This document shows positions 24,222 through 58,743 of a stretch of 64,000 nt of DNA, in pieces. The DNA is from a virus, in the IMG/VR virus record IMGVR_UViG_3300028654_000012, positions 32,001-96,000 of that record. One strand, written 5' to 3'. How positions within the stretch are numbered: position 1 is the first letter of the stretch; each line of letters begins with the position of its first letter. Under the pieces are notes generated by a model, which ran no database searches, was not told the DNA's origin, and was given only the letters and a program-made list of their open reading frames with translations. The position numbers and the translations under genes are program-made.

Positions 24222-24917
24222 ATGTCAAAAGCAACCGAAGCGCAAAAAGCCCACTTAAATCAAGTTAACGCAGATCTGATGCCCATCTTTTTCAAGTATC
24301 ATGATACTAAAATCAAATTACAAACAGTAACGGATCCAATTATTAAAGACGCTCTTGAGTATGATGCAATTCAATATCGTAATCAAGCGGTTGAAAAAGT
24401 ATTGGCGGAGCTGAGCGATTATCTCGATTCATTAATATATAGTTGGAATAACCATTTTGATTATAGTGAAGCTAAGTCATATGCGTACGAGAACCTATTA
24501 GAAGCGGTACAGAGATATAATCCTCACGTAACGCCTTTTTGCAAGTTCACTTCGTTCTTTTATATGTATAATCAAAACATTTTTAAGAATCTTTTAATTG
24601 GAACTCGGGCAAAGAAGAGGGACGTTTTTAAGACAGATTCACTTGACGCAACATGGGAAAGTTCTAGTGATGATATTGACACACCTAAGATATCTGAAAC
24701 TAATTTAAAAGATACTCCTTCCGAAGATCCTTCCGCTCAGTTAGAGACCAAATTAATAGTCCAAGAACTTTATAAGAAAGCTTCTCCTAAGCAAAAGAGA
24801 ATCTTAAAGAGATTATACTTTGGATATAGCCGTGCTGACATCGCTCGATCCTTAAAGATGTCTCAGACACGAATTAATTCTTTAATCAATCAACTACCTG
24901 CTCTTCTAGAGAAATAA
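24222..24917 (+). CDS. Sigma70-family-like RNA polymerase sigma factor
   Basis: Region-2-like 'AYENLLEAVQRYNP...FTSFFYMY..N' and region-4 HTH 'KRILKRLYFGYSRADIARSLKMSQTRI'. Confidence 0.68.
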   Translation: MSKATEAQKAHLNQVNADLMPIFFKYHDTKIKLQTVTDPIIKDALEYDAIQYRNQAVEKVLAELSDYLDSLIYSWNNHFDYSEAKSYAYENLLEAVQRYNPHVTPFCKFTSFFYMYNQNIFKNLLIGTRAKKRDVFKTDSLDATWESSSDDIDTPKISETNLKDTPSEDPSAQLETKLIVQELYKKASPKQKRILKRLYFGYSRADIARSLKMSQTRINSLINQLPALLEK

Positions 24918-25001
24918 TGCATCTTCTATTTTTAATTACTCTTGAAGTAATAGGGCTCCTTGGCTTATTAGCTTTAGTTGTCATTCTCACAATGTAAATT
25001 T

Positions 25002-25484
25002 ATGGACATATTCGACGTTCTAGATAAATATAAAGTAGACTACCAAGCGCAGGGCACGCTATACGTAGCCTATTGCCCTTTCCATGATGACGCAGGTAGA
25101 CCTAACTTCACTATATATCCTACTACGGATAGCTATTTTTGCTACGCATGTAAGAAAGGAGGGGGCCCTGTAGAATTTGTAATGGCGGCAGAGGGTAAAA
25201 CTAAAGAAGAAGCTACTCTCATAGTTCATGAAGACTTATCTTTCTTAATTAAGAAGTTAGAAGAAGAGCCTCCTACGCACCCTGTTAACGATGAGGCTAA
25301 TCTTCAATTAAGTATCCAAATTAGAGACTTCTTAAAAGATAACCCCAATAAGATATCTAAGGTACTAGGAATTTGTCGTAGGGTAGATGATACTTTAAAT
25401 AAAGGACCTCTTACCCGTGAAGAAGCCGCTGATTTAACTCAGAGGGTTACTAAAGTTTTAAGTTCGTTAAATGACAAGATGTAA
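25002..25484 (+). CDS. Stand-alone CHC2 zinc-binding domain of DnaG-type primase
   Basis: YCPFHDD..PNFTIYP...YFCYACKKGG; no TOPRIM domain follows. ATG at 25002 is the likelier start. Confidence 0.82.
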   Translation: MDIFDVLDKYKVDYQAQGTLYVAYCPFHDDAGRPNFTIYPTTDSYFCYACKKGGGPVEFVMAAEGKTKEEATLIVHEDLSFLIKKLEEEPPTHPVNDEANLQLSIQIRDFLKDNPNKISKVLGICRRVDDTLNKGPLTREEAADLTQRVTKVLSSLNDKM

Positions 25485-25516
25485 TATTATAAGGTAGCAT
25501 ATTTAAAGAGGATAAC

Positions 25517-26200
25517 ATGAAAACAATTTTGATTTATAGCGGCGGACTTGACTCAACCACTTTGCTTTACCAGTTGAAAGCGCAGGGACGTGACGTTAAG
25601 GCCCTCTCTATCAACTACGGTCAGCGTCATTCAAAGGAACTAGATTTCGCTAAGAGAAACTGCGATGCGCTGGGAGTGGAGCACCGAACGGTAGATCTCT
25701 CTTCTCTTAAACCCTTACTGGGGGGAAGTTCTCAGACGGATGCTAGTGTAGCTGTTCCCGAAGGTCATTATGCCGCGGAGAACATGAAACTCACGGTAGT
25801 GCCTAATCGTAACATGCTTATGTTATCCGTAGCAGCTGCCTGGGCGATTGCGGAAAAGGCTGATACTATTGCCTACGCGGCGCACTCCGGAGATCATGCT
25901 ATCTACCCTGACTGTCGTGAAGAGTTTGTAGATGCTTTGAACAAGGCGTTAGGATTAGCTGATTGGCATACCGTTCAGATCGAGAGACCTTTTATCAACA
26001 TCTCTAAATCTGATATTGTTAAGTTGGGCAACGATCTTAAGGTACCTTTTGCAGATACTTGGAGTTGCTACAAGGGTGGAGATAAAGCCTGCGGAGTATG
26101 TGGTACGTGTTACGAGAGGCGCGAAGCTTTCGTAGAGGCCGGCGTTACGGACCCTACTCCTTATCTAGACTCTACTACTAAGTTTCAGGTCCCGGCATAA
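25517..26200 (+). CDS. queC: 7-cyano-7-deazaguanine (preQ0) synthase
   Basis: SGGLDSTT, YGQRH, VPNRN, YPDCR, TWSCY...CGVCGTC. Confidence 0.96.
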   Translation: MKTILIYSGGLDSTTLLYQLKAQGRDVKALSINYGQRHSKELDFAKRNCDALGVEHRTVDLSSLKPLLGGSSQTDASVAVPEGHYAAENMKLTVVPNRNMLMLSVAAAWAIAEKADTIAYAAHSGDHAIYPDCREEFVDALNKALGLADWHTVQIERPFINISKSDIVKLGNDLKVPFADTWSCYKGGDKACGVCGTCYERREAFVEAGVTDPTPYLDSTTKFQVPA

Positions 26201-26201
26201 T

Positions 26202-26381
26202 ATGAGTATTAAGAAATCTAAATACTACCTAGTAAAGCATATGGCTGGCCCCGACATCATTAAGACAAATGATAAGAGGAAGATTAAGGCTTGGCTTACT
26301 AAATTCTATGAGGATTGTTCAAATCCCCCGGATCTAAATAGGCATATCTCCATACGTGAAATCGAAGTAATATCTGTATAA
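26202..26381 (+). CDS. Small hypothetical protein (59 aa, below the ORF-track cutoff)
   Basis: ATG right after the queC stop; MSIKKSKYYLVKH...EIEVISV* fills the gap. Confidence 0.55.
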   Translation: MSIKKSKYYLVKHMAGPDIIKTNDKRKIKAWLTKFYEDCSNPPDLNRHISIREIEVISV

Positions 26382-26386
26382 ATATC

Positions 26387-26632
26387 ATGAAAGAAAAACT
26401 AACTAAGCGGTACTCAAGAAAGCTATCCTATAAATACGCCTCAGAAGAGTTCTCTACGGAACTAACCCGAGAAGTAGATTATAATACTAAAGACGAATTC
26501 TTAGCTGCTAGTGAGAAGCTCGCCGCTCAAGTTAAGGCTCTGACAGCCCGAGATCTAGAGAAGCATTCTGAACTTTTGAAAGAAGCTGTCGAAAACGGCG
26601 ACGCTGTTAAAACACAGGAAACTACAGTTTAA
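26387..26632 (+). CDS. Hypothetical protein
   Basis: 81 aa, tightly packed. Confidence 0.6.
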   Translation: MKEKLTKRYSRKLSYKYASEEFSTELTREVDYNTKDEFLAASEKLAAQVKALTARDLEKHSELLKEAVENGDAVKTQETTV

Positions 26633-30398: not shown

Positions 30399-31424
30399 AT
30401 GGCTCACCTTTATCATCTTCTTACCTATCTATTTGTACTAGGCGTTGTCGTTACCCTCCATGAAATGGGCCATTATCTGGCCTGCAAATCTCAAGGAATA
30501 AGAGTAGACACCTTCTCCCTAGGCTTCGGCCCAGTACTAGCTAGCACTACTCTATGGGGAACTCTTTTTACACTCAGGCTAATACCCTTAGGGGGATTTA
30601 TTATTCCTGCTGGAGCCGGCAACCGCCCTGAAACTGCTACTGAAGGAGAGTACTTCAGTAAAGCGTGGTATAAGCGCCTTATCGTAGTATACGCAGGACC
30701 AGCTATGAACTTCGTTCTAGCCTTCCTTATCTTTGTAGGATTACTGTGGGCTAGAGGAATTCCTAGCTACACTGATGATTCTATTATAGGGCAGATGGAG
30801 AAAGGTTCCTTAGCGGACAAGGCTGGGCTACTTCCCGGTGACGAAATAATGTATGTCAACGAGGAACCTGTAGACACTTGGCATCGTATGCGGTTGGAGA
30901 TTTCTGTTTCAGGACCGGACTTAAGCCTTGTTGTTCTCCGAGGACACGCTTTAAAAACTTTTCACATTCCTTTCGGAATAGAACCTCCCCGCCTCCTAGG
31001 AATCCTGCCTCTGCAAACATACACTCCTCTAGGTTTAGTAGCCGCTAGTAAGGAAAGTGCTAGTATATGCACTTTCCAAGTCACTCAAACTTACCAAATC
31101 CTTTCAGCTAATTTAAGGCATGGTAAGAAAGCCGAGCTAGCAGGCCCTATAGGCATCTATCAAGCTGTAGCACAAGCCTCCTCAGATTGGGTAGAGACTT
31201 TTTCGCTCATGGCTATAATCTCACTATCACTAGGCATCTTTAACCTACTACCTATTCCTCTATTAGACGGAGGAACAGGAGTTCTATTCTGGTGGGAAGG
31301 ATTAACCGGAAAGTATCCCTCCACCTTAGTTGTAAATATATTCCAGCTAGTAGGCTTAGTTGTTATAGGCTTTATTCTCCTGTTCGCCACAGCAGGAGAT
31401 ATAGGCAGACTTCTAGGTCATTAA
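30399..31424 (+). CDS. rseP: Site-2 (M50) intramembrane zinc metalloprotease with PDZ, RseP-like
   Basis: HEMGH, FSLGFGP, RLIPLGGF, AGPAMN, PDZ 'GSLADKAGLLPGDEI', GPIGI, NLLPIPLLDGG. Confidence 0.92.
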   Translation: MAHLYHLLTYLFVLGVVVTLHEMGHYLACKSQGIRVDTFSLGFGPVLASTTLWGTLFTLRLIPLGGFIIPAGAGNRPETATEGEYFSKAWYKRLIVVYAGPAMNFVLAFLIFVGLLWARGIPSYTDDSIIGQMEKGSLADKAGLLPGDEIMYVNEEPVDTWHRMRLEISVSGPDLSLVVLRGHALKTFHIPFGIEPPRLLGILPLQTYTPLGLVAASKESASICTFQVTQTYQILSANLRHGKKAELAGPIGIYQAVAQASSDWVETFSLMAIISLSLGIFNLLPIPLLDGGTGVLFWWEGLTGKYPSTLVVNIFQLVGLVVIGFILLFATAGDIGRLLGH

Positions 31425-36444: not shown

Positions 36445-38895
36445 ATGTCTTTTGACTTAATCCCCAACCAGAATTGTTCTCTATGTGGTCTATGTAAGAC
36501 CCGTAAGGCTATCGTCAATGGTGTAGGACCTATTACATCAAAGATTATGGTGGTTAGAGAAGGTCCTAACTTTGAAGAAGATAAGATGGGATCCCCTATG
36601 CTCGGTGAAGCCGGGAGACTCTGGCGTAATCTTCTAAAACAGGCGGGCATCGATTACAGAGATATATTCATGACTAATCTGACTAGATGTCATGGAGGAG
36701 TAGTCGATTTTAAGAAAGGTCCTAAAGATCCTTCAGCTGAAGAGATAGCTGCTTGTGCCCCTTTTCTAGACGAAGAGATTAAAAGAATCCAGCCTGTAGT
36801 TATTGTACCCGTAGGTAATATAGCTCTTAGGTATTTCTTAGGAAGTAAAGTAGCTTCTATTATGACCCATAGAGGCACAGAATTCTGGTCAGAGAAGTAC
36901 AACTGCAAAGTTATCCCCGCTATTCACCCCGCTGCCATCCTTAGAAACCCTCAATATACTTCCATCACAATTCAGGACTTAGTTAGAATCAAACAGTCTT
37001 CTACATATACAGGCCTCACACCTAAAGGTGCAGGTACATATACTATCGCAGATACTTTCGATAAGGTAGAATCTCTATTCGCAGGCCTAGAAGCTGCCAG
37101 TGAGTTGGCAATAGATATCGAGACGACCGATTTAAATCCTCTCACCAGTGATATATCTTGTATTGGATTTAGCTGGAAAGAAAAGGAAGGCTGGTGCTTA
37201 CCTATCATGAAGGCAGGTGGAAGTACTGATTCCTTTTGGGACAAAGAGTATGCTGTAGCTCTCTGGGAGAGAATTAGACGTATACTAGAAGGTCCTGCTA
37301 AGAAGATTGGACACAACTTTAAGTTCGATCAAAAATTCTTCATAATGAAGGGTATCAAGTTAAATAACTTTTATTTTGATACTATGTTAGCACATCACCT
37401 CATTGACGAGAATGCTGAGAATCTACACGGCCTAAAGGACTGTGCCTGGGCATATACTGATATGGGTGGATATGATAAGGATCTAGACGACTGGTTTAAA
37501 GCTAATAAGCAATTCAAAGGACAGTATATCCAAGTACCTTTTGCTATGCTTAACGAATACTGCGCTAAAGATGCTGATTGCACCTTTAGACTTTTTAAAG
37601 TATTTGAACCGCAGATCACTAGTATGGACCTTACCAGACTGATGAGACAGATAGTATTACCTGCGAGAGATGTCTTAATGGATGCCGAACTACTAGGTAT
37701 TCAGGCAGATAAGGACTATATTGAAAAGCTTCGTGTAGAGTATTCTACAAAGAGAAGTTCTCTAGAACAGAGTATCTTTGATTCAGTAGGTAAGCCTTTT
37801 AACATTAACTCTTCTAAGCAACTGCAAGTCATCTTATTCACCGACTTAGGGTTCGCGCCTGTAGGTAAGACAAAGGGAGGAGGATTATCTACTGATAATG
37901 CAGCCATAGATCTCATTGCTAAAGCCAACCCTAACCATCCCGTACCTAAGTTACTATTAGAATACAAAGATTGTCAGAAGATCCTTAGTACTTTTATTGA
38001 AGGGTTATCTGAACATATAGATGTAGACGGTAGAGTACATAGTAATTACAAGCAGCACGGTACTACAACCGGTAGATTATCTTCTAGCGAGCCTAACATG
38101 CAACAGATTCCTCGCGAATCTATTGTGAGAGGAATATTTGTATCACGCCCTGGATTCAAGTTGATCGAGGCAGACTTCTCCTCAGCTGAATTTAGATGGT
38201 GGGCAGAGTATAGTAGAGATCCTCAGATGGTAGAAGATCTAAGGAACGGAGTAGATATTCACAGAATGACTTATGCTCTATCTCACGGAATAGATATAGC
38301 TCTTGTGACAGATTCCCAACGTCAGCAGGCTAAGGCAACAGTATTCGGACTCATGTACGGAAGAGGTACTTGGTCGCTAGCTGAAGAGCTAGGCATTGCT
38401 GAATCTGAAGCAAAGAAAATCGTAAGTATCTTTTTTGGAAGGTATCCCCAAGCCCAAGCTTGGTTAAAGCAGCAAATCTTTGTAGCTAAAAAGACAGGTC
38501 AAGTAGTTAATTACTTTGGAAGAATTCGCAGACTTCCTGGAATTACTAGTAGTCAGGATCAGGCTAGATCTGAGGCCGAGAGACAGTGCAAGAATGCCCC
38601 AATCCAGAGTGCAGCAGCTGACATGACTATGATCGCTTCTATTAGAGTTAAAAAGGCTTTAATTAACGCAGGACTTTCAGGTAACTTAGTCATGACTGTA
38701 CACGACTCACTAGTGTATGAAGTTCCAGAAAATGAGGTAGCTTCTACATTCAGTATAGTTAAGGGTGAGGCGGAGCGGCCAGTAGCAGGAGCTATAGTTC
38801 CTATGCTTGTGGATATCAAGGTAGGCACTCGGTTAGGCTCTCTAAAGAAGGTAAAGAACGTATCAGAATTATCTTCTGAATTATGTATTAAATAA
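36445..38895 (+). CDS. polA: Family A DNA polymerase with N-terminal family-4 UDG-like domain and 3'-5' exonuclease
   Basis: UDG-like: CSLCGLC, EGP, TN..RC, HPAA. Exonuclease: DIET, HNFKFD, YCAKD. Polymerase: TTTGRLSS..PNMQQIP, ADFSSAEFR, AKATVFGLMYG, VHDS. Confidence 0.94.
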   Translation: MSFDLIPNQNCSLCGLCKTRKAIVNGVGPITSKIMVVREGPNFEEDKMGSPMLGEAGRLWRNLLKQAGIDYRDIFMTNLTRCHGGVVDFKKGPKDPSAEEIAACAPFLDEEIKRIQPVVIVPVGNIALRYFLGSKVASIMTHRGTEFWSEKYNCKVIPAIHPAAILRNPQYTSITIQDLVRIKQSSTYTGLTPKGAGTYTIADTFDKVESLFAGLEAASELAIDIETTDLNPLTSDISCIGFSWKEKEGWCLPIMKAGGSTDSFWDKEYAVALWERIRRILEGPAKKIGHNFKFDQKFFIMKGIKLNNFYFDTMLAHHLIDENAENLHGLKDCAWAYTDMGGYDKDLDDWFKANKQFKGQYIQVPFAMLNEYCAKDADCTFRLFKVFEPQITSMDLTRLMRQIVLPARDVLMDAELLGIQADKDYIEKLRVEYSTKRSSLEQSIFDSVGKPFNINSSKQLQVILFTDLGFAPVGKTKGGGLSTDNAAIDLIAKANPNHPVPKLLLEYKDCQKILSTFIEGLSEHIDVDGRVHSNYKQHGTTTGRLSSSEPNMQQIPRESIVRGIFVSRPGFKLIEADFSSAEFRWWAEYSRDPQMVEDLRNGVDIHRMTYALSHGIDIALVTDSQRQQAKATVFGLMYGRGTWSLAEELGIAESEAKKIVSIFFGRYPQAQAWLKQQIFVAKKTGQVVNYFGRIRRLPGITSSQDQARSEAERQCKNAPIQSAAADMTMIASIRVKKALINAGLSGNLVMTVHDSLVYEVPENEVASTFSIVKGEAERPVAGAIVPMLVDIKVGTRLGSLKKVKNVSELSSELCIK

Positions 38896-43658: not shown

Positions 43659-43689
43659 AGCAATTTAACTTAGTAACCGGGGCCTAATA

Positions 43690-44871
43690 ATGTCTGCGAC
43701 AATATATGTAAAAGACGATGGGGATTATTTTTTAACAGCTGCCCAATACTCCCTATTTAAAACCTATTCAGATTTGGCAGTTAATTGGGTTAAGGTAGCC
43801 GAAGATAACGTTGATCTAACTCCTGAACAGCAAAAGGAGTACAACGATAATATAGCTAAAGCCGTTGGATGGGCTAAGAGCTTAAAGTTTAAACCCGAAA
43901 TGGGTATAGACCCCTCCTCATTCGCACACACAATTCTTCTTCACGCAGTAAAGACTTACGATGGAGCTAAAGGTACAGCATTCTCAACATGGCTCTACAG
44001 AATTATGCAGCAGCAAGCTGCCACACTTTGGAACAAGTATACTAAGTATTTAGAAGACACCTCAGGCGGAGAAAGATCGTTAGCCGAACCAGTATCAATG
44101 CCTGGAGGAGAAGAAGTAGAACTAGAGCAGTTACTTGAAGGTGTAGAGCAGTTAAGAGTACAAGACGATCCCGCCTATAATATCCTCCGCAGTCAACTTA
44201 AAGACCTCCTCGGCCAAGCCGATCCCTCAGGCAGACTTTTCCGCATCTACCGTATGTTAGTAGAGGAAGGTCTCTCAAACCCCCAAGTAGCCTCCGCTGA
44301 AAATCTTTCACCCTCTCGAGTTACGGGACTGGTTAAGAAAATTCAAGAAGTTCTAAAGAACCACGGAGACATTAAAGAGCTATTGGAGAATGGAGGATCT
44401 ACAGAAGAAAATAAAACTTCTGCAATTCGCCGGTTTATCTTTAGAGAAGGAGACCACGTCAACGTAATGTCTCTGGATAAACCTGGAGTAATTATTAAAG
44501 CTTATAAGGGAAATGTATTTGAAGTAAGATTAGATTACAATAACAATATTACTCGTACAGCCCGGCACGATCTAGAAAAGTATTCCACGGTAACTGATTC
44601 TGTAATTAAAGCCTCAAAGCATTTCTTCGGGTTGAGTATCCGAACTCCCCGTTGCTACGCTGCTCGCGTTAATAATAACGATAAATCTGTAATAGCTGTT
44701 CTTGAATTTAGACCCACATCTGAAATTACTACCCTAGCCAGTCTATACATGGGAAATACTATTGCGGGCAGTGTTGAGATTTCTGAAGGATCACTAACAA
44801 ACTTAGTTGATCTCGTTAAGATAAAAATGGGTACAGATGCTAAATTAGACCCCGAGTTTCTATCACTTTAA
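43690..44871 (+). CDS. Sigma-factor-like protein fused to a C-terminal SH3/KOW-like domain
   Basis: Region-2-like 'KTYDGAKGTAFSTWLYRIMQQQ', region-4-like 'GLSNPQVASAENLSPSRVTGLVKKI', then 'FREGDHVNV...PGVII'. Confidence 0.62.
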   Translation: MSATIYVKDDGDYFLTAAQYSLFKTYSDLAVNWVKVAEDNVDLTPEQQKEYNDNIAKAVGWAKSLKFKPEMGIDPSSFAHTILLHAVKTYDGAKGTAFSTWLYRIMQQQAATLWNKYTKYLEDTSGGERSLAEPVSMPGGEEVELEQLLEGVEQLRVQDDPAYNILRSQLKDLLGQADPSGRLFRIYRMLVEEGLSNPQVASAENLSPSRVTGLVKKIQEVLKNHGDIKELLENGGSTEENKTSAIRRFIFREGDHVNVMSLDKPGVIIKAYKGNVFEVRLDYNNNITRTARHDLEKYSTVTDSVIKASKHFFGLSIRTPRCYAARVNNNDKSVIAVLEFRPTSEITTLASLYMGNTIAGSVEISEGSLTNLVDLVKIKMGTDAKLDPEFLSL

Positions 44872-46459: not shown

Positions 46460-49400
46460 ATGAGTAATTGGATTACAGATTTGTTTTCAGGAAAGAAAGA
46501 AGAGCCAAAAGAGGTCTTCGCAGATAGAAACTCTATCATTCCGAAGTATCTCAGAAAGGCTGCCTTAACTGAGATGGAAACGGCTGAAGAGGACGTATCT
46601 AACGATTGGCATTCACGTGTTCATAATGTATCAGACTTCGTACTGGCTGAACAGATCACCGAACTAGAGCTAACCGGTAAGGGCGCCCCTGAGAAGTATA
46701 ATGCCCACTGGCAGACGGTGATGGATGACATTCGTAAGAATAGAACGAAAGCCGAAGAGCGTCTATTAAAGCTGGTTCCCCGCCATAGCTTGTTAGACAT
46801 CAAGGAATTCTTCAATCGCATTAAGAAGCAGAATGACAAGTTTGAAGTAGCTAAGGATAGAGCTTTAAATAAGAGAGCTGATCTTACTTTCACTTCTGCT
46901 GATAAGCTGGTAGCTAAAGGTACCTCTCACACCGCTTCGGTACTAGCTTCAGATGTAGATTATAATATCTACGCAGTTAAAACGGATTTTGCCGTAAATT
47001 ATTATGGAGGAGGAGATGCTCATGAAACGTTTGAAAAAGTTGGCGATGGACTGGAAAAAGAAGCTGCAAAAACAAGCGAGCCGCTTAGCCGCAATGTGCT
47101 CGAAGAAAAAGATGCCTCGGGCTCGTGGCAAGAGGTAATTTCTAGTCCTTTAGTTAAGGATGTTCAAATTCGTGCAGAATATGTCGCTGCAAAGAACCCT
47201 AAAGCGGAACTACGCATTCAGGCTCTTGAGGAACCTATGTTCCAAGAGGGTGAGACCGTAGCTGACGCTTCAGGTAAGGAAAATGCTGAAATTCTTCAGG
47301 TAGATAAAGAGAATGGTATGTACGTAATGAAAATACCTGGCTTTTCTACCCCTGTTAGAAAGACGTTTGAGAAGGCTCATGCAGGATTCCATAAAGGAAA
47401 GAAGCCCTATCTACCAGGTAATCCCGCTCCAGAACCTAAAGAGATGGGAAAACCTGATTCCTTGCCTAAGTCCAATACCGAATATATTACGGAGGATGAA
47501 AGGGCAAAGTTAGTAAAGAATGAGAAGGAGACAGCTGAGACTGAAAAAGAACTAGCTGGAGCGCAGGAGTTCTCTCGACATTGGCAGGATCTAACTAGAA
47601 AGCTAGAAGATCTGAAGATGAGACATACTGAGATGACTAAGAATAGGATTGTTCAACCGGGTATGCCTGATAGCAGACCGCCTACACCTGAAGAGAGTGC
47701 TAGCTACGATAGATCTAAAGCTTTGGAGAAGGCCCAGCCTGATCCAGAAGCTTCTAAAACGCAGTATGCTCCTCAGCCCTCTAAGAAGTTAGAACCAGAA
47801 GGATGGTGGGGCTGGCCTAACACCGAGAGAAATCTCAAGGCTCCTAAGAAGCACAAGAAGACTAACCAGGGTTTCGAATTATCTCTAGTAGCTAATTCAT
47901 TAACTCTTGAGTTACCTAATGGTAGCTTCCTGACATCCGTTCATGCAAATGAACAAGAGGCTGAAGCCGAGTTCGACAAAGCTGGCGATCTAGATTCACT
48001 AGCTTCGCTATTTCCCCTAGCTGCTCTTGAGACCTTTGAAAAGAAGGCTGAAGACGTAGGTACGGGAGGACCTAACATGGACGGATCTAATGTTATGGTA
48101 GATCCTCAGCGTGGCGGAGTTAATCAGATGGGTGAAGGAGTACAAGAAAATCCCGAACCTTTTAAAAAGAAATCTGATGACGAAGCTGTTGAAGAGCAGC
48201 TAGTTATGGACTTAAATGAATTGATCAAAGAAGCGGGTGGGGACGAAGCAGTTATTCAGAAAGCGATGGCTGCTGGCGCTAAAACGCGTGAAGAGATTGC
48301 TCGCCATGCCGTAATGGAACTAATCGGGGATACTCACGAGGTTGACTTTGACGCGCAGTTGACCGCTACGGGTCCTAATAGTTCTGCCCAGGGAGAACCT
48401 GACTTTCAACACTACAATCAGAAGTTTTCTGCAGCCGAGGTAGTTCCTTTTATGGAGAAGGCCCTTGATGAGTTCCTTCCTGAGAAGTCAGCTGAAGCCA
48501 AGTCGGAGAAGGCTCCAGTAGTAGTTCCCTCTGCCGATCTTTCTGCTCCTCGTCAGGCAGAGCAGGCCTTTGATCCTAATGCAGGCCTGCCAGGAGTATT
48601 ACCTCATGCATCTCTCGAAGATGATACTTTTGTTGTAGGAGAGAATGTTGTTCTCAATTCTAAAGTAGGTTCTCTAGGGGAAGGTACTGAGGTAAGGATT
48701 ACCGGAGTGGTGGGAGCTAGCCTAGCTTTCGAAGCAATCCATGACCCTAGAATTATAGGTATCACTAAGTTCGCTAAGGTAGATAAACAGAAGCCTTTAG
48801 AAAAGTATCTATGGGATAACGATGGAGTTAAAGTAGCTTTTGAGTTAGGAGACCACGTTAAGGTTTCTGCCTCTACTTTCCTCAATGGTAAAGCTCTTAA
48901 AGGAATGGAAGGTACTATCCGTGAGAAGGTACTTGTCAGTAATCCAGATGCTTCTGTAGATATGTTCTACTTAGTAGAATTTGATGGCGCGGGAAATACT
49001 ACGCTGCCGGGAGAGTGTCTAAAGAGAGGTTCAACTAAAAAGGCATCTTTTTTAGGCCATAAGGAGGCTACGCTCGAGGTAGTCTCCGTCATTGTTAAGC
49101 GCCCTAATGGTTGGTATGTTAAATCACACAAGGGTAAAAGCTTAGGCGGACCTTACCATAGTCGTGAGCGTGCGGAGAAGCGTCTTCAGCAGGTAGAGAT
49201 GTTTAAGCACATGAAGGGAGCGTCGGTTGATGGCAAGCCCTGGCTAACTACTCCTGGAGAACCTGAGAGAGAAGTGAGTGTTGAAGATGCAGCAACTTTA
49301 GCTCGGTTTCGCCGTGATAAAGAAATTGCTGACCTTAAGAAACAGAAAGAAGCGTTAGAAGGAGCTACTAAGACTGCGGTGATGAAACCTAACTTAGATA

Positions 49401-50860
49401 CAGCTCAGGACTTCTTAGATTCATTTAAGATCCCTCCTACGGTAGTATCTGATGTAATGATCCAGGAGTTTTTACAGGACAGTAACCTACACGCTTCTAA
49501 AACTGACCTAAACGAAATCTATAGAATCCTTCAGTCTAGCGGAGTAGAAGTTCGTATCAGTATGCCTAAGGAAGAGGTCACGGCTCCTACAGCTGAGCCT
49601 GCCCCTGAAGCTGAGCCTAAAGCTACTCCAGCTCCTAAGAAGAAAAGCTCTATCGATGAGGTACTTCTAGATATAAGAGTAGCCTTAGATACTTTTCACG
49701 CAAGTAAAGAGTATAAGGCTATGATTGAAGGGACTCTTTCTCAAGTAATGGCTGATGCTAAGGAAGATCCCACGGATACCGAGGAAGCTGCTAACGGACT
49801 TAAAGTAGGTTCTAAGGTACAATATACTGTCAAGAGCGAAGATGAACTTCCTGGCATTAAACCAGGTACTGCTATTACGGGCAAGGTAATCTTAATGCCT
49901 ATCCAGCATCCTGAGAAGGACATGAGCTCAGGCCAGCCTAAAGAACAGGGAGGAGCTCCTATTGTTACCGCTACTGTAATGTGGGACAAAGAAGAGCTAG
50001 GAACCTCTAGAGGGTTGCTGCCTGAAGAACTCGTTAAGGTTGCAGGTACTAAATATAAAACTGACGTTATGAACCCTGATGGAACTATGACTACTCTTGA
50101 AAAAGATATGGTCAACGATATGGGTCCTGAAGTTACTGAAGATAATCCTGATGGCTCAGCTACTACTTATAAGAAAGCCGAGTCAGACTTTACATGGGAA
50201 GATACGGGGCTAACTGAAGAGGAACATGAGAAAGCATCTGCCGATTCAATGGCAGAAGCTTTGCGTGATTATCGTCCACGTAAACCCAATGTGGATCTCG
50301 CCGAAAATCAAAACCATTGCGACAAGTGTAGTAACGGAGAGTATCTCGACCAACATATGGTTTGTAGATGCCCTGAACATTATGGAGTTAAAGCTAATCT
50401 TGCTGTAGAGGCAAAGGGTGAGAACGCCAAGATTCGTGAACTCAAGAAGCGTCTTGAAAAAGAAAACAAGCCTTCAGAGATTAGTGCCCTCATCAATGCT
50501 ATTGACGCTCTAAGTGGGTATGTTTCTAAAGGTAAGGAAGCCCGTGAGAAACGTCGTAAGGATAAAGCCGATAAAGCTACAGCAGCAACTGCTGAAACGG
50601 CAAAGGCTGATAAAGCCGAAGTACTCGCGGAAGTAGATGATGAAAGTGCTGAAGGTATGGAAAATGGTAGAGGTACGATGGAGACTGTACCAGAGCCTAT
50701 GGGAGATAAAGTTGCTCCTCTTGGGCCAAAGCCTAGCGACGAAGTTAAAGCTTCTGAAGAAAAGGAGTGCTGCATTCCTAGAGAACCGGGATTTCATAAT
50801 GATGAATGTCCGGAGCACGTAGAATGGTTAAGACAGCAGAAAGCTAATCCCACTAAGTAA
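46460..50860 (+). CDS. Giant acidic multidomain protein with SH3/KOW-like barrels (putative head-internal protein)
   Basis: 1466 aa E/K/P-rich; barrels at 'FQEGETV', 'FVVGENV', 'FELGDHV', 'LKVGSKV'; small 'IVKRPNGWYVKSHKGKSLGGPY..AEKRLQQVEMFKH' domain. Confidence 0.6.
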   Translation: MSNWITDLFSGKKEEPKEVFADRNSIIPKYLRKAALTEMETAEEDVSNDWHSRVHNVSDFVLAEQITELELTGKGAPEKYNAHWQTVMDDIRKNRTKAEERLLKLVPRHSLLDIKEFFNRIKKQNDKFEVAKDRALNKRADLTFTSADKLVAKGTSHTASVLASDVDYNIYAVKTDFAVNYYGGGDAHETFEKVGDGLEKEAAKTSEPLSRNVLEEKDASGSWQEVISSPLVKDVQIRAEYVAAKNPKAELRIQALEEPMFQEGETVADASGKENAEILQVDKENGMYVMKIPGFSTPVRKTFEKAHAGFHKGKKPYLPGNPAPEPKEMGKPDSLPKSNTEYITEDERAKLVKNEKETAETEKELAGAQEFSRHWQDLTRKLEDLKMRHTEMTKNRIVQPGMPDSRPPTPEESASYDRSKALEKAQPDPEASKTQYAPQPSKKLEPEGWWGWPNTERNLKAPKKHKKTNQGFELSLVANSLTLELPNGSFLTSVHANEQEAEAEFDKAGDLDSLASLFPLAALETFEKKAEDVGTGGPNMDGSNVMVDPQRGGVNQMGEGVQENPEPFKKKSDDEAVEEQLVMDLNELIKEAGGDEAVIQKAMAAGAKTREEIARHAVMELIGDTHEVDFDAQLTATGPNSSAQGEPDFQHYNQKFSAAEVVPFMEKALDEFLPEKSAEAKSEKAPVVVPSADLSAPRQAEQAFDPNAGLPGVLPHASLEDDTFVVGENVVLNSKVGSLGEGTEVRITGVVGASLAFEAIHDPRIIGITKFAKVDKQKPLEKYLWDNDGVKVAFELGDHVKVSASTFLNGKALKGMEGTIREKVLVSNPDASVDMFYLVEFDGAGNTTLPGECLKRGSTKKASFLGHKEATLEVVSVIVKRPNGWYVKSHKGKSLGGPYHSRERAEKRLQQVEMFKHMKGASVDGKPWLTTPGEPEREVSVEDAATLARFRRDKEIADLKKQKEALEGATKTAVMKPNLDTAQDFLDSFKIPPTVVSDVMIQEFLQDSNLHASKTDLNEIYRILQSSGVEVRISMPKEEVTAPTAEPAPEAEPKATPAPKKKSSIDEVLLDIRVALDTFHASKEYKAMIEGTLSQVMADAKEDPTDTEEAANGLKVGSKVQYTVKSEDELPGIKPGTAITGKVILMPIQHPEKDMSSGQPKEQGGAPIVTATVMWDKEELGTSRGLLPEELVKVAGTKYKTDVMNPDGTMTTLEKDMVNDMGPEVTEDNPDGSATTYKKAESDFTWEDTGLTEEEHEKASADSMAEALRDYRPRKPNVDLAENQNHCDKCSNGEYLDQHMVCRCPEHYGVKANLAVEAKGENAKIRELKKRLEKENKPSEISALINAIDALSGYVSKGKEAREKRRKDKADKATAATAETAKADKAEVLAEVDDESAEGMENGRGTMETVPEPMGDKVAPLGPKPSDEVKASEEKECCIPREPGFHNDECPEHVEWLRQQKANPTK

Positions 50861-50878: not shown

Positions 50879-53800
50879 ATGCCTCTAATACCTAAGGTAG
50901 TAACTAATTTACTTAACGAAGACATTTACATTGATGATATCGTTGGCTTTGGCAGCCAGCCCATCCTCATCCCTGCCCTGGCTACTAATGTAGACCTGAC
51001 GCAATACGCGTTAGAAGCTACTCTAGCTACATCTGCTAACCTAATTCATTTATATAGATCAGGAGTGATAGATGTAGTATCTACTTTTGACACAGATCAA
51101 TTAAATGCTACGGGAGTTCTAGTTACTGGTACTCCTACTGTCGGCCAAGTCTTAACCGCGACTGATGCCACAGATGCTACCTGGCAAGCTGGAGGTGGAG
51201 GCGGAGCCCCTTCAGGACCTGCTGGCGGAGATTTATCAGGAACCTATCCTAATCCTACTGTAGTAAGTGCCGCCGGGGATCTTACTGTTAATGGTAGATT
51301 ACTATTAACCGCAAGTAGTTCTCAACAGATTTCAGACCAGTCTTCGGGGATGTTTAACTACGATAGTACTACAGGTACTTTAACTGTAGTTAATACCCAT
51401 GTAGGAAATTTAGAAATAGGAGACGGCTTCGGTCACGCAGTTACTTATTTCGACGGCGCAAGCTTAATAAATCTGACTTTTGATGCTCCTTCCGCGGGAC
51501 AAGTATTTACTGCTACAGACGGTACACATGCTTCTTGGCAAACTCCTTCAGGAGGAACTCCTGGCGGAGCTACCGGAGCGGTTCAGTTTAATAACGGAGG
51601 AGCGTTCGACGGTGATGCAGCCAACTTCTCTTGGGATACGTCGGGCGTTCCGAACACCTTGAATGTTAGCCAGATTAGCGGTCCCGGAAATACTCCGTTG
51701 ATTGTAAAGAATGGGCTACACATTTTTACTGGGCAAGGATCTATTGGTGTTGTTACTGGCGGAGCAAGTAGTTTCGATGCAGGCTCTTTCACTACAGATG
51801 GTTCAGGTAATGTAATTGTTAATACTTTAACCTCGAACGGCAGTATGGGTAGTGTAGGGCCTTTAAATACAAACTCGGATTTTCTTGTGAGCGGCCATTC
51901 AACTTTGGACAACGGAGCTATCACTACGGATGGCGCAGGCAATATATTAGTTACCTCAATAGGAGTAGGTAGAACCTTAGGTGCCTCATTTGGACCTTAT
52001 TCTTTAGAAGCTAAGAGTCAGATAGCTATAGTAGACGCTGATGGATCTAACGGCGGTGGAGTCGTTCAAGCGCAAGGATTTAACGGTACAGGAGGTATAA
52101 TTAATGGATCTTCAGCCCAAGGTCCTGAATCTGCTCCTACAGCTTCTTTAACAGACGATCTTCTTGCTTCATTTGGTGCGCGAGGATACGACGGTACATC
52201 TCCTACAAATGCTAAAGCTTTTGTGAGAATGTTTGCAGAAGAAGATTGGGGTCCTACAAATACAGGAGCTAGATTAGAACTATGGGTAACTCCCAATGGT
52301 ACAGTAACTCGGCAGCGAGCCGTAAGAGTTAACAACGATACTAGTTTAGATGTTCTAAGCGGCAATCTTAATCTATTAGGTCCCGTCAATAATGATGTAC
52401 ATCTTAATCTTGGAGTTAGCGGTAACGCTCAGTCGGTAGTTTACTTTAACGGCGGATCAGTAAACTATACTATCTCCAAATCTGATTCAGGCCCTACTCC
52501 TCTTTGGAAGTTCGGTATCAACAATACTGGTACCCCCGCTATTACAGTTAACTCTTCTATACAGGTAGGTATCGATAATCCTACACCTGTGTATCCTCTA
52601 GATGTAGTAGGAGATGTTAATATAACAGGCTCCTATCTCGTTAATGGAACTCCTCTCTCTGCGGGATCTCCAGGCGGTTCAAATACTCAACTCCAATATA
52701 ATAATGCGGGTACCTTTGATGGAATGCCTTCTACATGGGATGGAACCAACCTATTACTAACAGGTAATACAGAGGGCGTAGTAACGATCTCTGGCGGACC
52801 AATCCCTAACAATGTTTCGAACGCGCCTACAACAGGTGCAGTAAACATTAATGGCGCTGACACCTTAGGAGCTACCTGGGGAGGAACAGTTACTATCCGG
52901 GGAGGTAACGATACATTTGGACAAGCAGGCCACTTAATTCTATCAGGAGGCAATGCAACTCCCGGAGGATTTGGGGGATCTGTAACAATAAGTGGGGGAA
53001 TAGGAGATACGCCTCAGTATAATGGTGTGGTAACTATTCAGTCAGGGGGAACTTCCATCGCTACATTCGGGGCACCTGGAGAAGTACTAGGACCTCCTAA
53101 CATTTCTTTTACTGCTCCCGTTACGATTGCAGATGGTACGCAAGCAGCAGGAAAGGTTCTAACCTCTGATGCTTCTGGTAATGCCTCTTGGCAGACAGCT
53201 GGAGGCCCTCCTTCAGGAGCGGCAGGAGGAGCTTTAAGTGGTACATATCCAAATCCTACACTAGTACCTGGGTTCATATTACATTTCATAGCCCAAAATT
53301 TTGGCCTAGGAGATGGAACAGGTGGTATCACGTCAGACGGCACCTACTTCTATGTAGGCCTAGAACCTGACCAACTTTATAGGGCGCATGTTTCTAATGG
53401 TAGTGGAGGGCAAGGTGTAGTAATAGGCGGAAGTAATATAACCGGAGTATTTTATGACTCAGGTAGTTCTAGTGTCTGGGTAGCTAATGGTAATGGTAAT
53501 TATGTAACCAAAGTTACTACTTCCCCCTTCGCTGTAGTAGCTAATTATCCCGTGGGCGCTAACCCTCAAGGCATCACCTCCGACGGGACTAATATCTGGA
53601 TTGCTAACAAAGATGATAATACTGTAACTAAGCTCTTAGCAGCTGACGGATCTTTAGTAGGTACTTACCCTGTAGGATCCGCTCCTATAGGTATCACCTT
53701 CGACGGAACTAATATCTGGACTGCTAATAGTGGCGGAGGGAATGTTACAAAACTTCTTGCCTTGGACGGATCCAGTATAGGGAGCTATCCTGTTACTTTC

Positions 53801-55615
53801 CCCGGAGGCTCAATACCTACAGGCGTTGCTACGGACGGAACTAATCTTTGGGTTACCAATAGTGGGCAAGGCACACTCTCAGGGTTACTCACTTCAGACG
53901 GATCCAACCCCTATTTAATTACGGTAGGTAATACTCCTACAGGCATCACCTTTGACGGTACCAATATGTGGGTTATTAACTACGGAGATAATACCGTTAC
54001 TCAATTCTTATCTTCAAACGGAACTATAATTGGTACATATGCCGTAGGTACAGCTTCTACGGGTATTATGTTTGATGGAGCTAATACTTGGACGGCTAAC
54101 GCCGGAAGTGCTAACTTATCTAAATTAGTAGCTTACGAACAGTTTGTAGGACCTGTCGTTGGAGGTACAGTAGCTGGTGGCGATCTATCTGGTACTTACC
54201 CTAATCCAACAGTTAATACCCTTACTGCTGTTACAGGACCTACCTCATTAGATTCCGGAGCTATCCATTCTGACGGGTCTGGAAATCTTGGAGTGACCTC
54301 TCTTACAGCTGCAGGAGGCAATGTTAATGCCGCTAATTATTATGTAGATAATGTACTCTCATTCAGTTCTGCCGGCCTTATCACTTCAGCGCTTCAAGTA
54401 ACTACAAGTCCAACCTCAGGCTATGTCCTAACCTCTGATGCCTCGGGTAATGCTTCTTGGCAGGCATCTGCAGGATCTCCTCCCGGAGTAGGCTCTGACT
54501 ACATCTTAAGAGATAGTTCTAATCAGCTTTCTATTGATTGGGGTAATCACATACTGTTCTACCCTTCTGGCAGCCCTATTCAGTCTATCAACTGGGGCTT
54601 TAGTCAGCTGTTAGATACAAGCGGTAACCAATCCGCTCAGTGGGACTTTAGAATACTTTACGATTCTACAAGTCACATGTCTGTGAATTGGCAGAGCCGG
54701 TGGCTAGCAGGCACTACCGGACAGACTGTACTAGATTGGCAGTTCGCTACTCTAAATGATCTCAGTTCCACTAATTCTCTCAAATGGGATATTCGACAAC
54801 TATGGAATAATACAGGACAACCTGTCTTAGACTGGTCGACTAGTACGGGAAGCCATGTTGACTTCTACGTACCTATAAAAATTACTGATGGAACTGAAGG
54901 GGCCGGATATGTCTTAACTTCCGATGCTAATGGACTAGGTTCATGGGCAGCTCCTGTGGCAGCAGGTGCAGATACTCAGGTTCAGTTTAATAGTTCAGGA
55001 AGTCTTGCAGCGTCCAGTAATTTGACGTTTGACGGGTACAGCTTATCCATATCTAGAGCTGGTTCCGCAGCTAATACCTTGTACTTGAGTGATACTGGAG
55101 CAGGTCAACCTGGAATTCAATTTATTAGTGCAGGGAATCCAAATCCTTGGGCCATATACACTTATGATAATGATAGATTAGCAATAGGAGTTTCAGGCGG
55201 TATCGAGAATTTTGTTCTAGCTCGTAATGGTAATATGGGCGTAGGCCCGGGAATTTCTAATCCCGCTTATACCTTAGATGTTGCAGGTGATACGCATACT
55301 TCAGGTCAATTAATTGTAGGCGGAACTTCTAGCTTAGATGGAGGGTCTATCACTACTGATGGTAGTGGAGACATAACTGTACAGGCTATCAATATCCAAG
55401 GAGTAGCAGTATTCAATCCTAATGCATTGCCTCCAGCTCCTATGCAGGGCAGAGTCTATTTCGATGCCCCTTCTAGTCAGCTAGAAGTTAGTTTGGATGG
55501 CAGCTCATACGTCCAAGTAGTTACTACCAGTACACCGGGAGCGTCAGGTACCTTTACAACGGCGGATTCAAAGACAGTTACTGTTACGAACGGAATTATC
55601 ACTTCAATAGTATAA
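50879..55615 (+). CDS. Large virion fibre, paralog of 7141-10638
   Basis: Shared N-terminus (IP.VV.NL...I...D...P.....VDL...AL...L..S..L.HLYR.G.I.V), GGDLSGTYPNPT linkers, FDGTNIW propeller at ~53310-54130. Confidence 0.78.
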   Translation: MPLIPKVVTNLLNEDIYIDDIVGFGSQPILIPALATNVDLTQYALEATLATSANLIHLYRSGVIDVVSTFDTDQLNATGVLVTGTPTVGQVLTATDATDATWQAGGGGGAPSGPAGGDLSGTYPNPTVVSAAGDLTVNGRLLLTASSSQQISDQSSGMFNYDSTTGTLTVVNTHVGNLEIGDGFGHAVTYFDGASLINLTFDAPSAGQVFTATDGTHASWQTPSGGTPGGATGAVQFNNGGAFDGDAANFSWDTSGVPNTLNVSQISGPGNTPLIVKNGLHIFTGQGSIGVVTGGASSFDAGSFTTDGSGNVIVNTLTSNGSMGSVGPLNTNSDFLVSGHSTLDNGAITTDGAGNILVTSIGVGRTLGASFGPYSLEAKSQIAIVDADGSNGGGVVQAQGFNGTGGIINGSSAQGPESAPTASLTDDLLASFGARGYDGTSPTNAKAFVRMFAEEDWGPTNTGARLELWVTPNGTVTRQRAVRVNNDTSLDVLSGNLNLLGPVNNDVHLNLGVSGNAQSVVYFNGGSVNYTISKSDSGPTPLWKFGINNTGTPAITVNSSIQVGIDNPTPVYPLDVVGDVNITGSYLVNGTPLSAGSPGGSNTQLQYNNAGTFDGMPSTWDGTNLLLTGNTEGVVTISGGPIPNNVSNAPTTGAVNINGADTLGATWGGTVTIRGGNDTFGQAGHLILSGGNATPGGFGGSVTISGGIGDTPQYNGVVTIQSGGTSIATFGAPGEVLGPPNISFTAPVTIADGTQAAGKVLTSDASGNASWQTAGGPPSGAAGGALSGTYPNPTLVPGFILHFIAQNFGLGDGTGGITSDGTYFYVGLEPDQLYRAHVSNGSGGQGVVIGGSNITGVFYDSGSSSVWVANGNGNYVTKVTTSPFAVVANYPVGANPQGITSDGTNIWIANKDDNTVTKLLAADGSLVGTYPVGSAPIGITFDGTNIWTANSGGGNVTKLLALDGSSIGSYPVTFPGGSIPTGVATDGTNLWVTNSGQGTLSGLLTSDGSNPYLITVGNTPTGITFDGTNMWVINYGDNTVTQFLSSNGTIIGTYAVGTASTGIMFDGANTWTANAGSANLSKLVAYEQFVGPVVGGTVAGGDLSGTYPNPTVNTLTAVTGPTSLDSGAIHSDGSGNLGVTSLTAAGGNVNAANYYVDNVLSFSSAGLITSALQVTTSPTSGYVLTSDASGNASWQASAGSPPGVGSDYILRDSSNQLSIDWGNHILFYPSGSPIQSINWGFSQLLDTSGNQSAQWDFRILYDSTSHMSVNWQSRWLAGTTGQTVLDWQFATLNDLSSTNSLKWDIRQLWNNTGQPVLDWSTSTGSHVDFYVPIKITDGTEGAGYVLTSDANGLGSWAAPVAAGADTQVQFNSSGSLAASSNLTFDGYSLSISRAGSAANTLYLSDTGAGQPGIQFISAGNPNPWAIYTYDNDRLAIGVSGGIENFVLARNGNMGVGPGISNPAYTLDVAGDTHTSGQLIVGGTSSLDGGSITTDGSGDITVQAINIQGVAVFNPNALPPAPMQGRVYFDAPSSQLEVSLDGSSYVQVVTTSTPGASGTFTTADSKTVTVTNGIITSIV

Positions 55616-56478: not shown

Positions 56479-56494
56479 TACGTCTCGTTATAAA

Positions 56495-56517
56495 GATTTG
56501 TCGGAAATGTATAATTA
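56495..56517 (+). promoter_or_regulatory. Putative promoter GATTTGTCGGA...TGTATAATTA
   Basis: Intergenic; the 11-mer recurs at 20295 and TGTAT(T)AATTA recurs at 15908, 17602 and 31451. Confidence 0.4.
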
Positions 56518-56592
56518 GTTAGAATCAAGAGCAACTTAGCGAAGAACCGATTAGTAGAGTGAGGACGCTAAAGACTCTCAAAAGAGGAAGTA

Positions 56593-57447: not shown

Positions 57448-57471
57448 TAACGATTTAGTCAGGAGAAAAGT

Positions 57472-57642
57472 ATGTCTGAAGAGACCAAGAAGAAGTATCA
57501 TTGTGCAAATTGCCGCGAGGATAAGAAAGAAGACCTTGGGCAGATTAAGCGCACAGCCGTTGGCGAAGGCAGAACTCTAATTTTCTGTGAAGCTTGTCAG
57601 TGCTTCCTGAAGCTAGAGGAAAGCAAGCCAGCTGCGAAGTAA
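57472..57642 (+). CDS. Small zinc-ribbon protein (56 aa)
   Basis: AGGAG RBS; CANC...CEAC. Confidence 0.62.
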   Translation: MSEETKKKYHCANCREDKKEDLGQIKRTAVGEGRTLIFCEACQCFLKLEESKPAAK

Positions 57643-57672
57643 GTCGAAATTAAATAATCAGTTTTAAATCAT

Positions 57673-57717
57673 CAAGTCGAGATCTATCGGTAAGCATCGA
57701 TAGGTCTTTTTGACTTG
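57673..57717 (+). terminator. Rho-independent terminator-like hairpin
   Basis: agatctatcg/cgataggtct stem (one G-U pair) followed by a T run; outer caagtc/gacttg. Confidence 0.6.
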
Positions 57718-57752
57718 CATGAAGACGTTAAATTCACTTACAAGGCGGTAGC

Positions 57753-57962
57753 ATGTTATCTGCCAAGAAGCAGAAGTGTCCTTATTGCGCGAAGTCATCC
57801 TATTTCTATGTATATATGGATGAAGTCGAAGATAAGACCGCCATATTCACACAATGTTACAATCCTAAATGTTCACAGTATATAGACATTTGGGTTGTAC
57901 CGCACAGTAAAGTCCAGAGCACCTTAGACTCGCTAATAGGCGAAGTCTGGAAGGAAACTTAA
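57753..57962 (+). CDS. Small zinc-ribbon protein
   Basis: CPYC...CYNPKC; GGCGG RBS. Confidence 0.6.
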   Translation: MLSAKKQKCPYCAKSSYFYVYMDEVEDKTAIFTQCYNPKCSQYIDIWVVPHSKVQSTLDSLIGEVWKET

Positions 57963-57978
57963 CCCATGCGGGGATAAC

Positions 57979-58743
57979 ATGAAGTGGGCTTCTAATAAAT
58001 TCTTTAGGTTGTTCGTAATAGGCGTATTACTATTCGCCTTATATACAAAGCTGTCCAGCCCTGTCTTCATGGTTAACAGAGCAGAAGATGCTGTGGTTGT
58101 TTTACAGATCGTTAAGAATGAACAAGTAGATCCCGGACCTCTCCTGCCTACTCCTTCACATAAACACAAACATAAAAAGCATAAAGTAATCGATGTTCAA
58201 CTTGCTAAAGAGAAAAGAACATATCTTTGTGCAGGGTATGTTGCAGATGATTACGGACATATAGTAACAGCTGCTCATTGTGTGGAAGGCGGAAAGGATT
58301 TAGTATCAGTAACGGTACTATTACACGGCGAGCGTATAGGTTACCCTGCTACTCTTATCTTAAAGAGAACTCGATTAGATATAGCTCTAATTCAAGCAAA
58401 CCTTCCAGAAGGAACTCCCTACCTACACACTAAGCCAGATTACGAATGGCCCGGGACTCACCTGTGGGCTATTGGACACCCTCTAGGATTATTCTATAGT
58501 GTTAGCGACGGAGTTGTATCTGGTTACGCAGCAGGAATGTACGGATCTACCTTTATGCAGTTAACAGCACCAGTTAACCCTGGAAATTCTGGCGGACCTA
58601 TTATTAACGATAAAGGCGAAGTCATCGGAGTATGTTCCTTTATGGCTATAGCTCCGTGGGGAACTCCTGCAGCCGGCCTAAACTTCGCAGTCCCTTCACC
58701 TACTATCGATACTGTAATGTCAGGATATCTAAACCACAACTAA
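57979..58743 (+). CDS. Membrane-anchored/secreted trypsin-like serine protease (HtrA/DegS-like, no PDZ)
   Basis: N-terminal hydrophobic segment; catalytic triad motifs TAAHC, DIAL, PGNSGGP; AIGHPLG. Confidence 0.88.
   Translation: MKWASNKFFRLFVIGVLLFALYTKLSSPVFMVNRAEDAVVVLQIVKNEQVDPGPLLPTPSHKHKHKKHKVIDVQLAKEKRTYLCAGYVADDYGHIVTAAHCVEGGKDLVSVTVLLHGERIGYPATLILKRTRLDIALIQANLPEGTPYLHTKPDYEWPGTHLWAIGHPLGLFYSVSDGVVSGYAAGMYGSTFMQLTAPVNPGNSGGPIINDKGEVIGVCSFMAIAPWGTPAAGLNFAVPSPTIDTVMSGYLNHN

Follow-up and report, generated by a model that had tools for sequence, protein, structure and literature searches.

Cells are known to use regulated intramembrane proteolysis for signalling. In the DegS-RseA-RseP pathway of Escherichia coli, an anchored protease of the HtrA family (DegS, site 1) and then the site-2 protease RseP cleave a membrane-bound anti-sigma factor, and the sigma factor is released. 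Access to the second enzyme is gated: the PDZ domains of RseP act as a size filter that bars bulky periplasmic domains from the membrane-embedded active site, and a prior periplasmic cut is needed because of this barrier (PMC11864173, PMC10470546). Signal peptides and small membrane proteins, HokB among them, are further substrates that RseP clears (PMC10470546). A literature search for phage-encoded site-2 proteases found no paper on the subject.

The DNA considered here is a stretch of 64,000 nucleotides, referred to as the window, that spans bases 32001-96000 of the 116,673-bp IMG/VR record IMGVR_UViG_3300028654_000012. The record has a CheckV completeness of 56%, which implies a genome of ∼200 kb, and its source is an uncultured jumbo phage of peat or soil. 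The window encodes an RseP-type site-2 protease and a trypsin-like serine protease of the HtrA type, the latter predicted to be exported or anchored in a membrane, and represents a case of phage-borne envelope proteolysis. An earlier note on this DNA had proposed that the two proteases run a cascade releasing phage sigma factors. That interpretation is partly supported, because the proteases co-occur in other phages while the link to the sigma factors is unsupported and the two protease genes lie in different transcription units. The features on which the argument turns are:

30399-31424, + strand: RseP-type group I site-2 protease, 341 amino acids, with HEMGH at residues 21-25, one PDZ domain at ∼128-190, NLLPIPLLDGG at 282-292 and four transmembrane helices
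29679-30395, + strand: QueE-like radical SAM enzyme, with its stop codon 3 nt upstream of the RseP start
57979-58743, + strand: HtrA-type serine protease, 254 amino acids, predicted to be exported or membrane-anchored, with an anchor at residues 8-26, the triad H100/D134/S204 and no PDZ domain
57679-57708, + strand: 13-bp terminator-like hairpin that divides the transcription unit of the trypsin-like protease from the genes upstream

The two proteases of the soil phage

Sequence and predicted fold identify the product of 30399-31424 as a genuine group I site-2 protease of the RseP type, with predicted activity. The earlier description of an intact RseP with HExxH, PDZ and NLLPxPxLDGG elements was borne out. 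The protein scores 196.4 bits against the NCBIfam equivalog model TIGR00054 'RIP metalloprotease RseP' (cut-off 147.55), and matches Pfam Peptidase_M50 (E 3.5e-49) as well as a PDZ model. It stays under the cut-off of the E. coli-specific model NF008046 (116.6 against 477 bits), and no PHROG family was matched. The top match in the Protein Data Bank (PDB) is to Aquifex RseP chains (E 1e-49). An AlphaFold2 model (pLDDT 89.2, pTM 0.81) matches the solved structures of RasP, Aquifex RseP and E. coli RseP, with Foldseek E values of 1e-22 to 1e-25 and TMq of 0.68-0.74 against 9a6w (RasP), 9j83 and 7w6x. The residues H21, E22, H25 and D290 are invariant in 67 homologous sequences.

The gene sits in a replication and DNA-modification operon, QueE-RseP-SbcC-SbcD, and the 3 nt between QueE and RseP place these two in one transcription unit. 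Involvement of RseP in the preQ0 pathway was considered and rejected, as the QueE adjacency is confined to close relatives and is not found in the marine phages described below.

Orthologues of RseP within the phage lineage are 85, 65 and 52% identical to it, and all catalytic motifs are kept. The closest cellular relatives are single-PDZ RseP proteins of the Elusimicrobiota type at ∼40% identity. In trees built from quick searches, the phage clade nests among these sequences on a long stem (SH-aLRT 94-100). A metagenome scan with RseP returned solely cellular RseP, at 36% identity or less. A scan of IMG/VR with the single protein gave no match, whereas alignment-based scans did find M50 genes; these viral censuses rest on short DNA patterns and are not exhaustive.

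G001 and its kin form a sister lineage, represented by at least 19 contigs from several samples, with a DNA polymerase, PolA, that is 88% identical to that of the window phage. The RseP of G001 (L019:5294-6103), 265 amino acids long, retains HEMGH and NILPIPLLDGG and has a clean deletion of the PDZ region, which spans residues ∼122-207 in the window protein. It looks like a natural ungated variant of the enzyme.

The trypsin-like protease at 57979-58743 matches Trypsin_2 (E 7.8e-23) and the generic model degP_htrA_DO (E 1.2e-30), which is its best model at 106.8 bits, under the cut-off of 416.2. It had been called DegS-like. That label holds for the membrane anchor and the HtrA protease domain with its triad, and for no more. 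The DegS equivalog TIGR02038 gives 53 bits against a cut-off of 422.95, no Pfam match to PDZ was obtained, and the chain stops ∼35 residues past the protease domain, as it does in five of five phage orthologues. Without a PDZ domain and so far under the DegS cut-off, the protein is not a DegS orthologue.

H100, D134 and S204 are invariant in eight aligned sequences. Anchor and triad recur in every member of the clade, at 74, 62, 58 and 53% identity, and a PDZ domain in none of them; the next cellular match has 45% identity over 59% of the length. Gene callers used in public collections begin the protein at Met31, that is, without the hydrophobic segment. The hydrophobic N-terminus is nevertheless coding, since the four orthologues at 53-74% identity all keep it, and an N-terminal anchor of this kind is present in five of five phage orthologues. 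The protease is predicted to be exported or anchored. Calls of transmembrane segments and signals here and below come from a Kyte-Doolittle hydropathy script rather than a dedicated predictor, and gene calls from a greedy picker of open reading frames (ORFs). A role in head maturation was rejected on the conserved signal anchor.

The transcription unit of the trypsin-like protease also holds a 954-amino-acid protein and PhoH. A single-protein scan of IMG/VR with this protease gave no match, and a test on its origin returned p 0.31. Past the end of the window, the same genome encodes a papain-family C1 protease with an N-terminal hydrophobic anchor (L140:6523-7389, − strand; Peptidase_C1, 66.7 bits) and a methionine aminopeptidase (L140:8747-9490, − strand; M24, 148 bits). 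With the anchored papain-type enzyme, the exported or anchored proteases of the phage would number three, each of a different class.

Both proteases can be followed in orthologues down to ∼50% identity with the catalytic residues kept, and in G001 both are present in conserved synteny. They are among the most diverged genes of that genome (RseP 65%, trypsin-like protease 57% identity). On this comparative evidence, both proteases are intact, long-term residents of the phage lineage under constraint, and not recent or dead captures; the earlier caveat that RseP might be a recent and inactive acquisition from a host is not upheld.

Co-occurrence in marine jumbo phages

The alignment-based scans of IMG/VR revealed PDZ-less M50 genes of 266-273 amino acids in many large viral contigs of marine type, termed group B here (the soil lineage being group A). 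Some of these genomes are near-complete at 175-190 kb, and one (G006) has a T4-type terminase. M50 and Trypsin_2 genes are both present in each of the seven group B records with a completeness of 59% or more (G006, G007, G011, G012, G016, G019 and G023). These records are mutually related and amount to ∼2-3 independent observations of co-occurrence, not seven. The two families are otherwise rare, with 21 matches for RseP and 17 for the trypsin-like protease among 50,697 GenBank phage records. The tblastn matches there were all weak, many fell in shared records, and several of the shared records are evidently bacterial, with annotated yaeL, degQ or degS. As a control for adjacency in metagenomes, 80 cellular RseP loci were inspected, none of which had an HtrA gene within 4 kb. 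The co-occurrence proposed as a check in the earlier note thus holds for the two proteases, in G001 and in the seven marine records. A link between the two proteases is plausible.

Two gene orders bring the families side by side in group B. In one, an exported trypsin-like protease is followed by a bitopic protein of ∼156 amino acids, 'tmX', whose end overlaps the start of M50; upstream and divergent lie genes for a 94-amino-acid secreted protein (s94), a 150-amino-acid anchored protein (tm150) and a 420-amino-acid VWA/MopE protein. In the other (L039, L164), M50 directly adjoins the VWA set and the trypsin gene, without tmX. In most further lineages tmX-M50 stands alone within 8 kb of M50, and the complete genomes G011 and G019 have an intact VWA-tm150-s94-trypsin set at a distance of 60-75 kb from tmX-M50. 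In group B, tmX-M50 and the trypsin set are two separate modules. The set of VWA+MopE protein, tm150, s94 and trypsin-like lipoprotein (L026:2603-5543, L176:5488-8447, L177:7461-10427) stays whole whether it adjoins tmX-M50 or not.

Searches of tmX against Atlas, Pfam and PHROG returned virus-only hypothetical clusters and nothing else, and a tmX hidden Markov model (HMM) found no match in six-frame ORFs of G000 and G001. The group B M50 is sister to RseP of alphaproteobacterial type, and that of group A nests in the Elusimicrobiota-type clade. Two separate captures are favoured because the proteins fall in these different cellular clades; approximately unbiased (AU) tests of a single phage M50 clade gave p 0.095 and 0.063, by which one origin is not formally rejected. 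The soil phage and group B also have in common a PHROG 7499 protein (∼110-125 amino acids) and a gene resembling GMP reductase and IMPDH (L140:10932-11261 and L140:11577-12638, both on the − strand; L026:6852-7223 and L026:14258-15364); in group B, the PHROG 7499 protein directly follows M50.

Sigma-like genes and genome context

The three sigma-like genes and the small membrane ORF named in the earlier note are all present, one of the sigma-like genes consisting of region 4 only:

24222-24917, + strand: sigma-like protein 1, 231 amino acids, soluble, regions 2 and 4; followed by a primase zinc-finger gene
43217-43612, + strand: sigma region-4-only protein, 131 amino acids, soluble; its start overlaps the end of a NusG/LoaP-like gene at 42628-43233
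43690-44871, + strand: sigma-like protein 3, 393 amino acids, soluble, regions 2 and 4 and a soluble C-terminal extension of ∼150 amino acids
34593-34724, + strand: conserved single-pass membrane ORF, 43 amino acids, with a strong transmembrane segment; a 45-amino-acid version exists in G001

Only the product of 43690 passes Pfam Sigma70_r2 (27.3 against a cut-off of 24). The protein from 24222 matches TIGR02937, a model of the extracytoplasmic function (ECF) type, and PHROG sigma families under their cut-offs, and the TIGR02937 scores of the three proteins (37.6, 32.7 and 25.2 bits) all fall under 42.9. Neither a transmembrane segment nor an anti-sigma domain was found by Pfam and hydropathy in the three proteins or their neighbours. 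The neighbours are DnaB, the primase zinc finger, the NusG-like protein and soluble proteins of 238 and 144 amino acids without a Pfam match, and none has a transmembrane segment. The membrane-tethered sigma partner required by a cascade is thus missing from these loci. All bitopic small ORFs of the window are unlinked to the sigma genes, and the basic C-terminal tail of the 43-amino-acid ORF suggests an N-out/C-in topology, not the type II arrangement that RseP prefers. The sigma-like genes at 43217 and 43690 share 90% identity with their G001 counterparts, which does not fit a phage-internal circuit co-adapted with proteases at 57-65%.

Among the marine phages, the near-complete genomes (including three at 95-100%) have no sigma70 or ECF match above cut-off, partial matches reaching 26 bits at most; one lineage, G009, has a real ECF sigma ∼25 kb from M50. 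A link of the proteases to the phage sigma factors is unsupported, and the best explanation of the three sigma-like proteins is an independent soluble transcription set, not tethered through a protease target. The region 42628-44871 forms a transcription cluster of NusG/LoaP-like antiterminator, 131-amino-acid region-4-only protein and sigma-like protein, each ∼90% conserved in G001.

Near-identical contigs of the phage occur in several metagenome assemblies of soil or peat type, the longest of 140 kb, and a megablast search with 16 kb of the phage against GenBank phages gave no match. Window genes up to ∼63.4 kb are tightly packed on the + strand and include tail and baseplate genes and a holin. 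The replication block comprises DnaB, primase, RecA, SbcCD, a fusion of uracil-DNA glycosylase and PolA, dUTPase and Toprim. The fusion (36445-38895, 816 amino acids) joins a domain of the uracil-DNA-glycosylase superfamily to a 3'-5' exonuclease and a family A DNA polymerase, and adjoins the dUTPase in a phage predicted to modify guanine. Genes of the preQ0 pathway (QueC, QueE, QueD, FolE2 and a TGT-like gene) are scattered through the region, and the phage is predicted to modify its own DNA via a 7-deazaguanine pathway.

Promoter and terminator scans of the phage stayed at chance level, save for the hairpin at 57679-57708. The intergenic stretches 20289-20323, 43613-43689 and 56479-56530 have a promoter-like motif in common, TTGTCG(G/T)...TA(t/g)AAT, two of the three reading ATTTGTCGGAnnTGT; the motif could be a class of phage promoter. 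Two giant ORFs at 46460-50860 (1466 amino acids) and 50879-55615 (1578 amino acids) are without Pfam match and have marginal PHROG matches. The second has no counterpart in G001, where its flanking genes adjoin.

Possible roles and comparison with known systems

The genes are intact, the folds recognisable and conserved, and the two enzymes are found together at the genome level in two phage groups. From these observations it is proposed that the HtrA-type protease, acting outside the cytoplasm, would cut back the extracytoplasmic portion of at least one single-pass membrane protein. Trimming would let the PDZ-gated RseP reach and cut the remaining membrane stub, and this second cut would either destroy the target or free its cytoplasmic end. 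That a PDZ-less, exported HtrA-type protease serves as trimming enzyme ahead of a PDZ-gated RseP is plausible. The target would be a membrane protein of the host or of the phage, and not a tether of the phage sigma-like proteins. The chances of such two-step cleavage are put at about even. Host anti-sigma factors and membrane defence proteins, which the earlier note had named as alternative targets, are candidates.

Several findings weigh against two-step cleavage. As the earlier note had recognised, the genes are not adjacent: RseP and the trypsin-like protease are 27.6 kb apart in separate transcription units. Kinship within group B leaves ∼2-3 independent observations of co-occurrence instead of seven. 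M50 has tmX as its conserved partner in most marine relatives, where the trypsin-like protease goes with VWA, tm150 and s94; HMMs of tmX, VWA, tm150 and s94 found no homologue in the 116-kb record of the window phage. A site-1 cut should be unnecessary for the PDZ-less M50 proteins of one sister lineage and of all group B. A substrate emerged for neither protease, and the signal anchor and topology are hydropathy calls.

A wider form of the proposal is that at least two unrelated groups of large phages each recruited a cellular site-2 protease and an exported HtrA-type protease as a two-step device, which either senses the envelope and releases a cytoplasmic signal or destroys membrane defence or toxin proteins, the PDZ-bearing and PDZ-less enzymes being its gated and ungated forms. 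This generalisation is unlikely.

Envelope upkeep without a shared substrate is comparably unlikely: RseP would clear signal peptides and small membrane proteins, and the HtrA-type protease would degrade misfolded exports during a long infection. Such housekeeping by RseP is described in E. coli (PMC10470546), and this explanation accommodates the separate transcription units of the window phage and the separate modules of most marine relatives. The anchored papain-type protease and methionine aminopeptidase of the soil phage and the GroEL, DnaJ and ClpP-like genes of group B would also find a place in it. Less easily explained is why two rare families occur together in each sufficiently complete genome of two groups and are brought side by side in two gene orders, and the translational coupling of the marine M50 to bitopic tmX suggests a specific partner. 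Somewhat less probable again is that the pair, or RseP alone, cuts a host anti-sigma factor of the RseA or FecR type and switches on or holds a host ECF regulon. The phage RseP does come from a cellular RseP clade and scores above the RseP equivalog cut-off, the fast divergence of both proteases fits a host interface, and an anchored HtrA domain without PDZ is like a DegS that has shed its inhibitory PDZ domain. The host would already own an RseP, however, and the benefit to the phage is speculative.

The remaining two explanations are far weaker. Control of pore-forming proteins, in which the proteases remove host Hok-like or abortive-infection toxins and avert early death, or remove phage holin, antiholin or spanin and set lysis time, has a slim chance of being right. 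In T4, DegP degrades the antiholin RI. HokB loses its toxicity in E. coli when RseP cleaves it, and trimming of HokB has been proposed for DegQ (PMC10470546). Next to the holin of the phage lies a type II coiled-coil membrane protein:

15936-17125, + strand: lysis region, with a type II anchored coiled-coil protein (15936-16667) and a Phage_holin_4_1 holin (16688-17125)

By topology, either lysis-region protein is a possible substrate, and no more than that. The lysis genes lie 14 kb and 41 kb from the proteases, unlinked to them, RseP is expressed with replication genes, and the host offers no known Hok-like target. The holin's neighbour (243 amino acids) matches no family; it combines a type II anchor at its N-terminus with a coiled coil and, at the C-terminus, a beta-rich domain ending in Phe like an outer-membrane-protein signal, and could be an unusual spanin-like protein. 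The slimmest chance of all attaches to the phage sigma cascade of the earlier note, with the exported protease as site 1 and RseP as site 2 cutting a membrane anti-sigma, freeing a phage sigma and timing its genes. The catalytic players and three sigma-like genes do share one genome, the architecture is like DegS-RseA-RseP (PMC10470546), and the ∼44% of the genome outside the record could code for an anti-sigma. Against this stand the absence of transmembrane and anti-sigma domains from the sigma-like proteins and their neighbours, the bitopic ORFs unlinked to the sigma genes, the marine phages that carry both protease modules without a sigma70 or ECF match above cut-off, and the contrast in G001 between conserved sigmas and diverged proteases.

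If phages own an RseP and a site-1-like partner, they could cut host or phage membrane proteins at will, and this would add a new layer to host takeover, lysis timing or counter-defence. With single-PDZ, PDZ-deleted and tmX-coupled enzymes occurring as a natural series, the question is testable, and compact site-2 protease variants are at hand for work on substrate gating.

Compared with DegS-RseA-RseP of E. coli, the window phage likewise combines an anchored HtrA-family protease with a PDZ-bearing group I site-2 protease containing HExxH and LDG, and the logic of the PDZ filter implies an earlier periplasmic cut. In contrast with DegS, its serine protease is without a PDZ sensor domain; its RseP has one PDZ domain and not the tandem two of E. 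coli RseP; there is neither an RseA-like anti-sigma nor a linked sigma factor, and the protease genes are 27.6 kb apart. In fold, single PDZ domain and similar length, the phage RseP is closer to Bacillus subtilis RasP (9a6w, the best structural match, TMq 0.74) and to Elusimicrobiota RseP. It differs from these in its identity of ∼40% or less to any cellular sequence, in the location of its gene in a replication operon and in the loss of the PDZ domain in a sister phage lineage.

In the SpoIVB/CtpB-SpoIVFA/BofA-SpoIVFB system of B. subtilis, serine proteases act on the bitopic partners of a PDZ-less site-2 protease, which makes it the best analogue for marine tmX-M50 and for the PDZ-less variant of the soil lineage. 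SpoIVFB is nevertheless a group III enzyme with a CBS domain, the phages are without a pro-sigma and the partners are not homologous. Group B itself resembles the window phage in that a single genome encodes both a site-2 protease and an exported trypsin-like protease, close to genes of replication. Its M50, unlike that of the window phage, always lacks a PDZ domain and is coupled to tmX, and its trypsin-like protease belongs to a four-gene secreted set.

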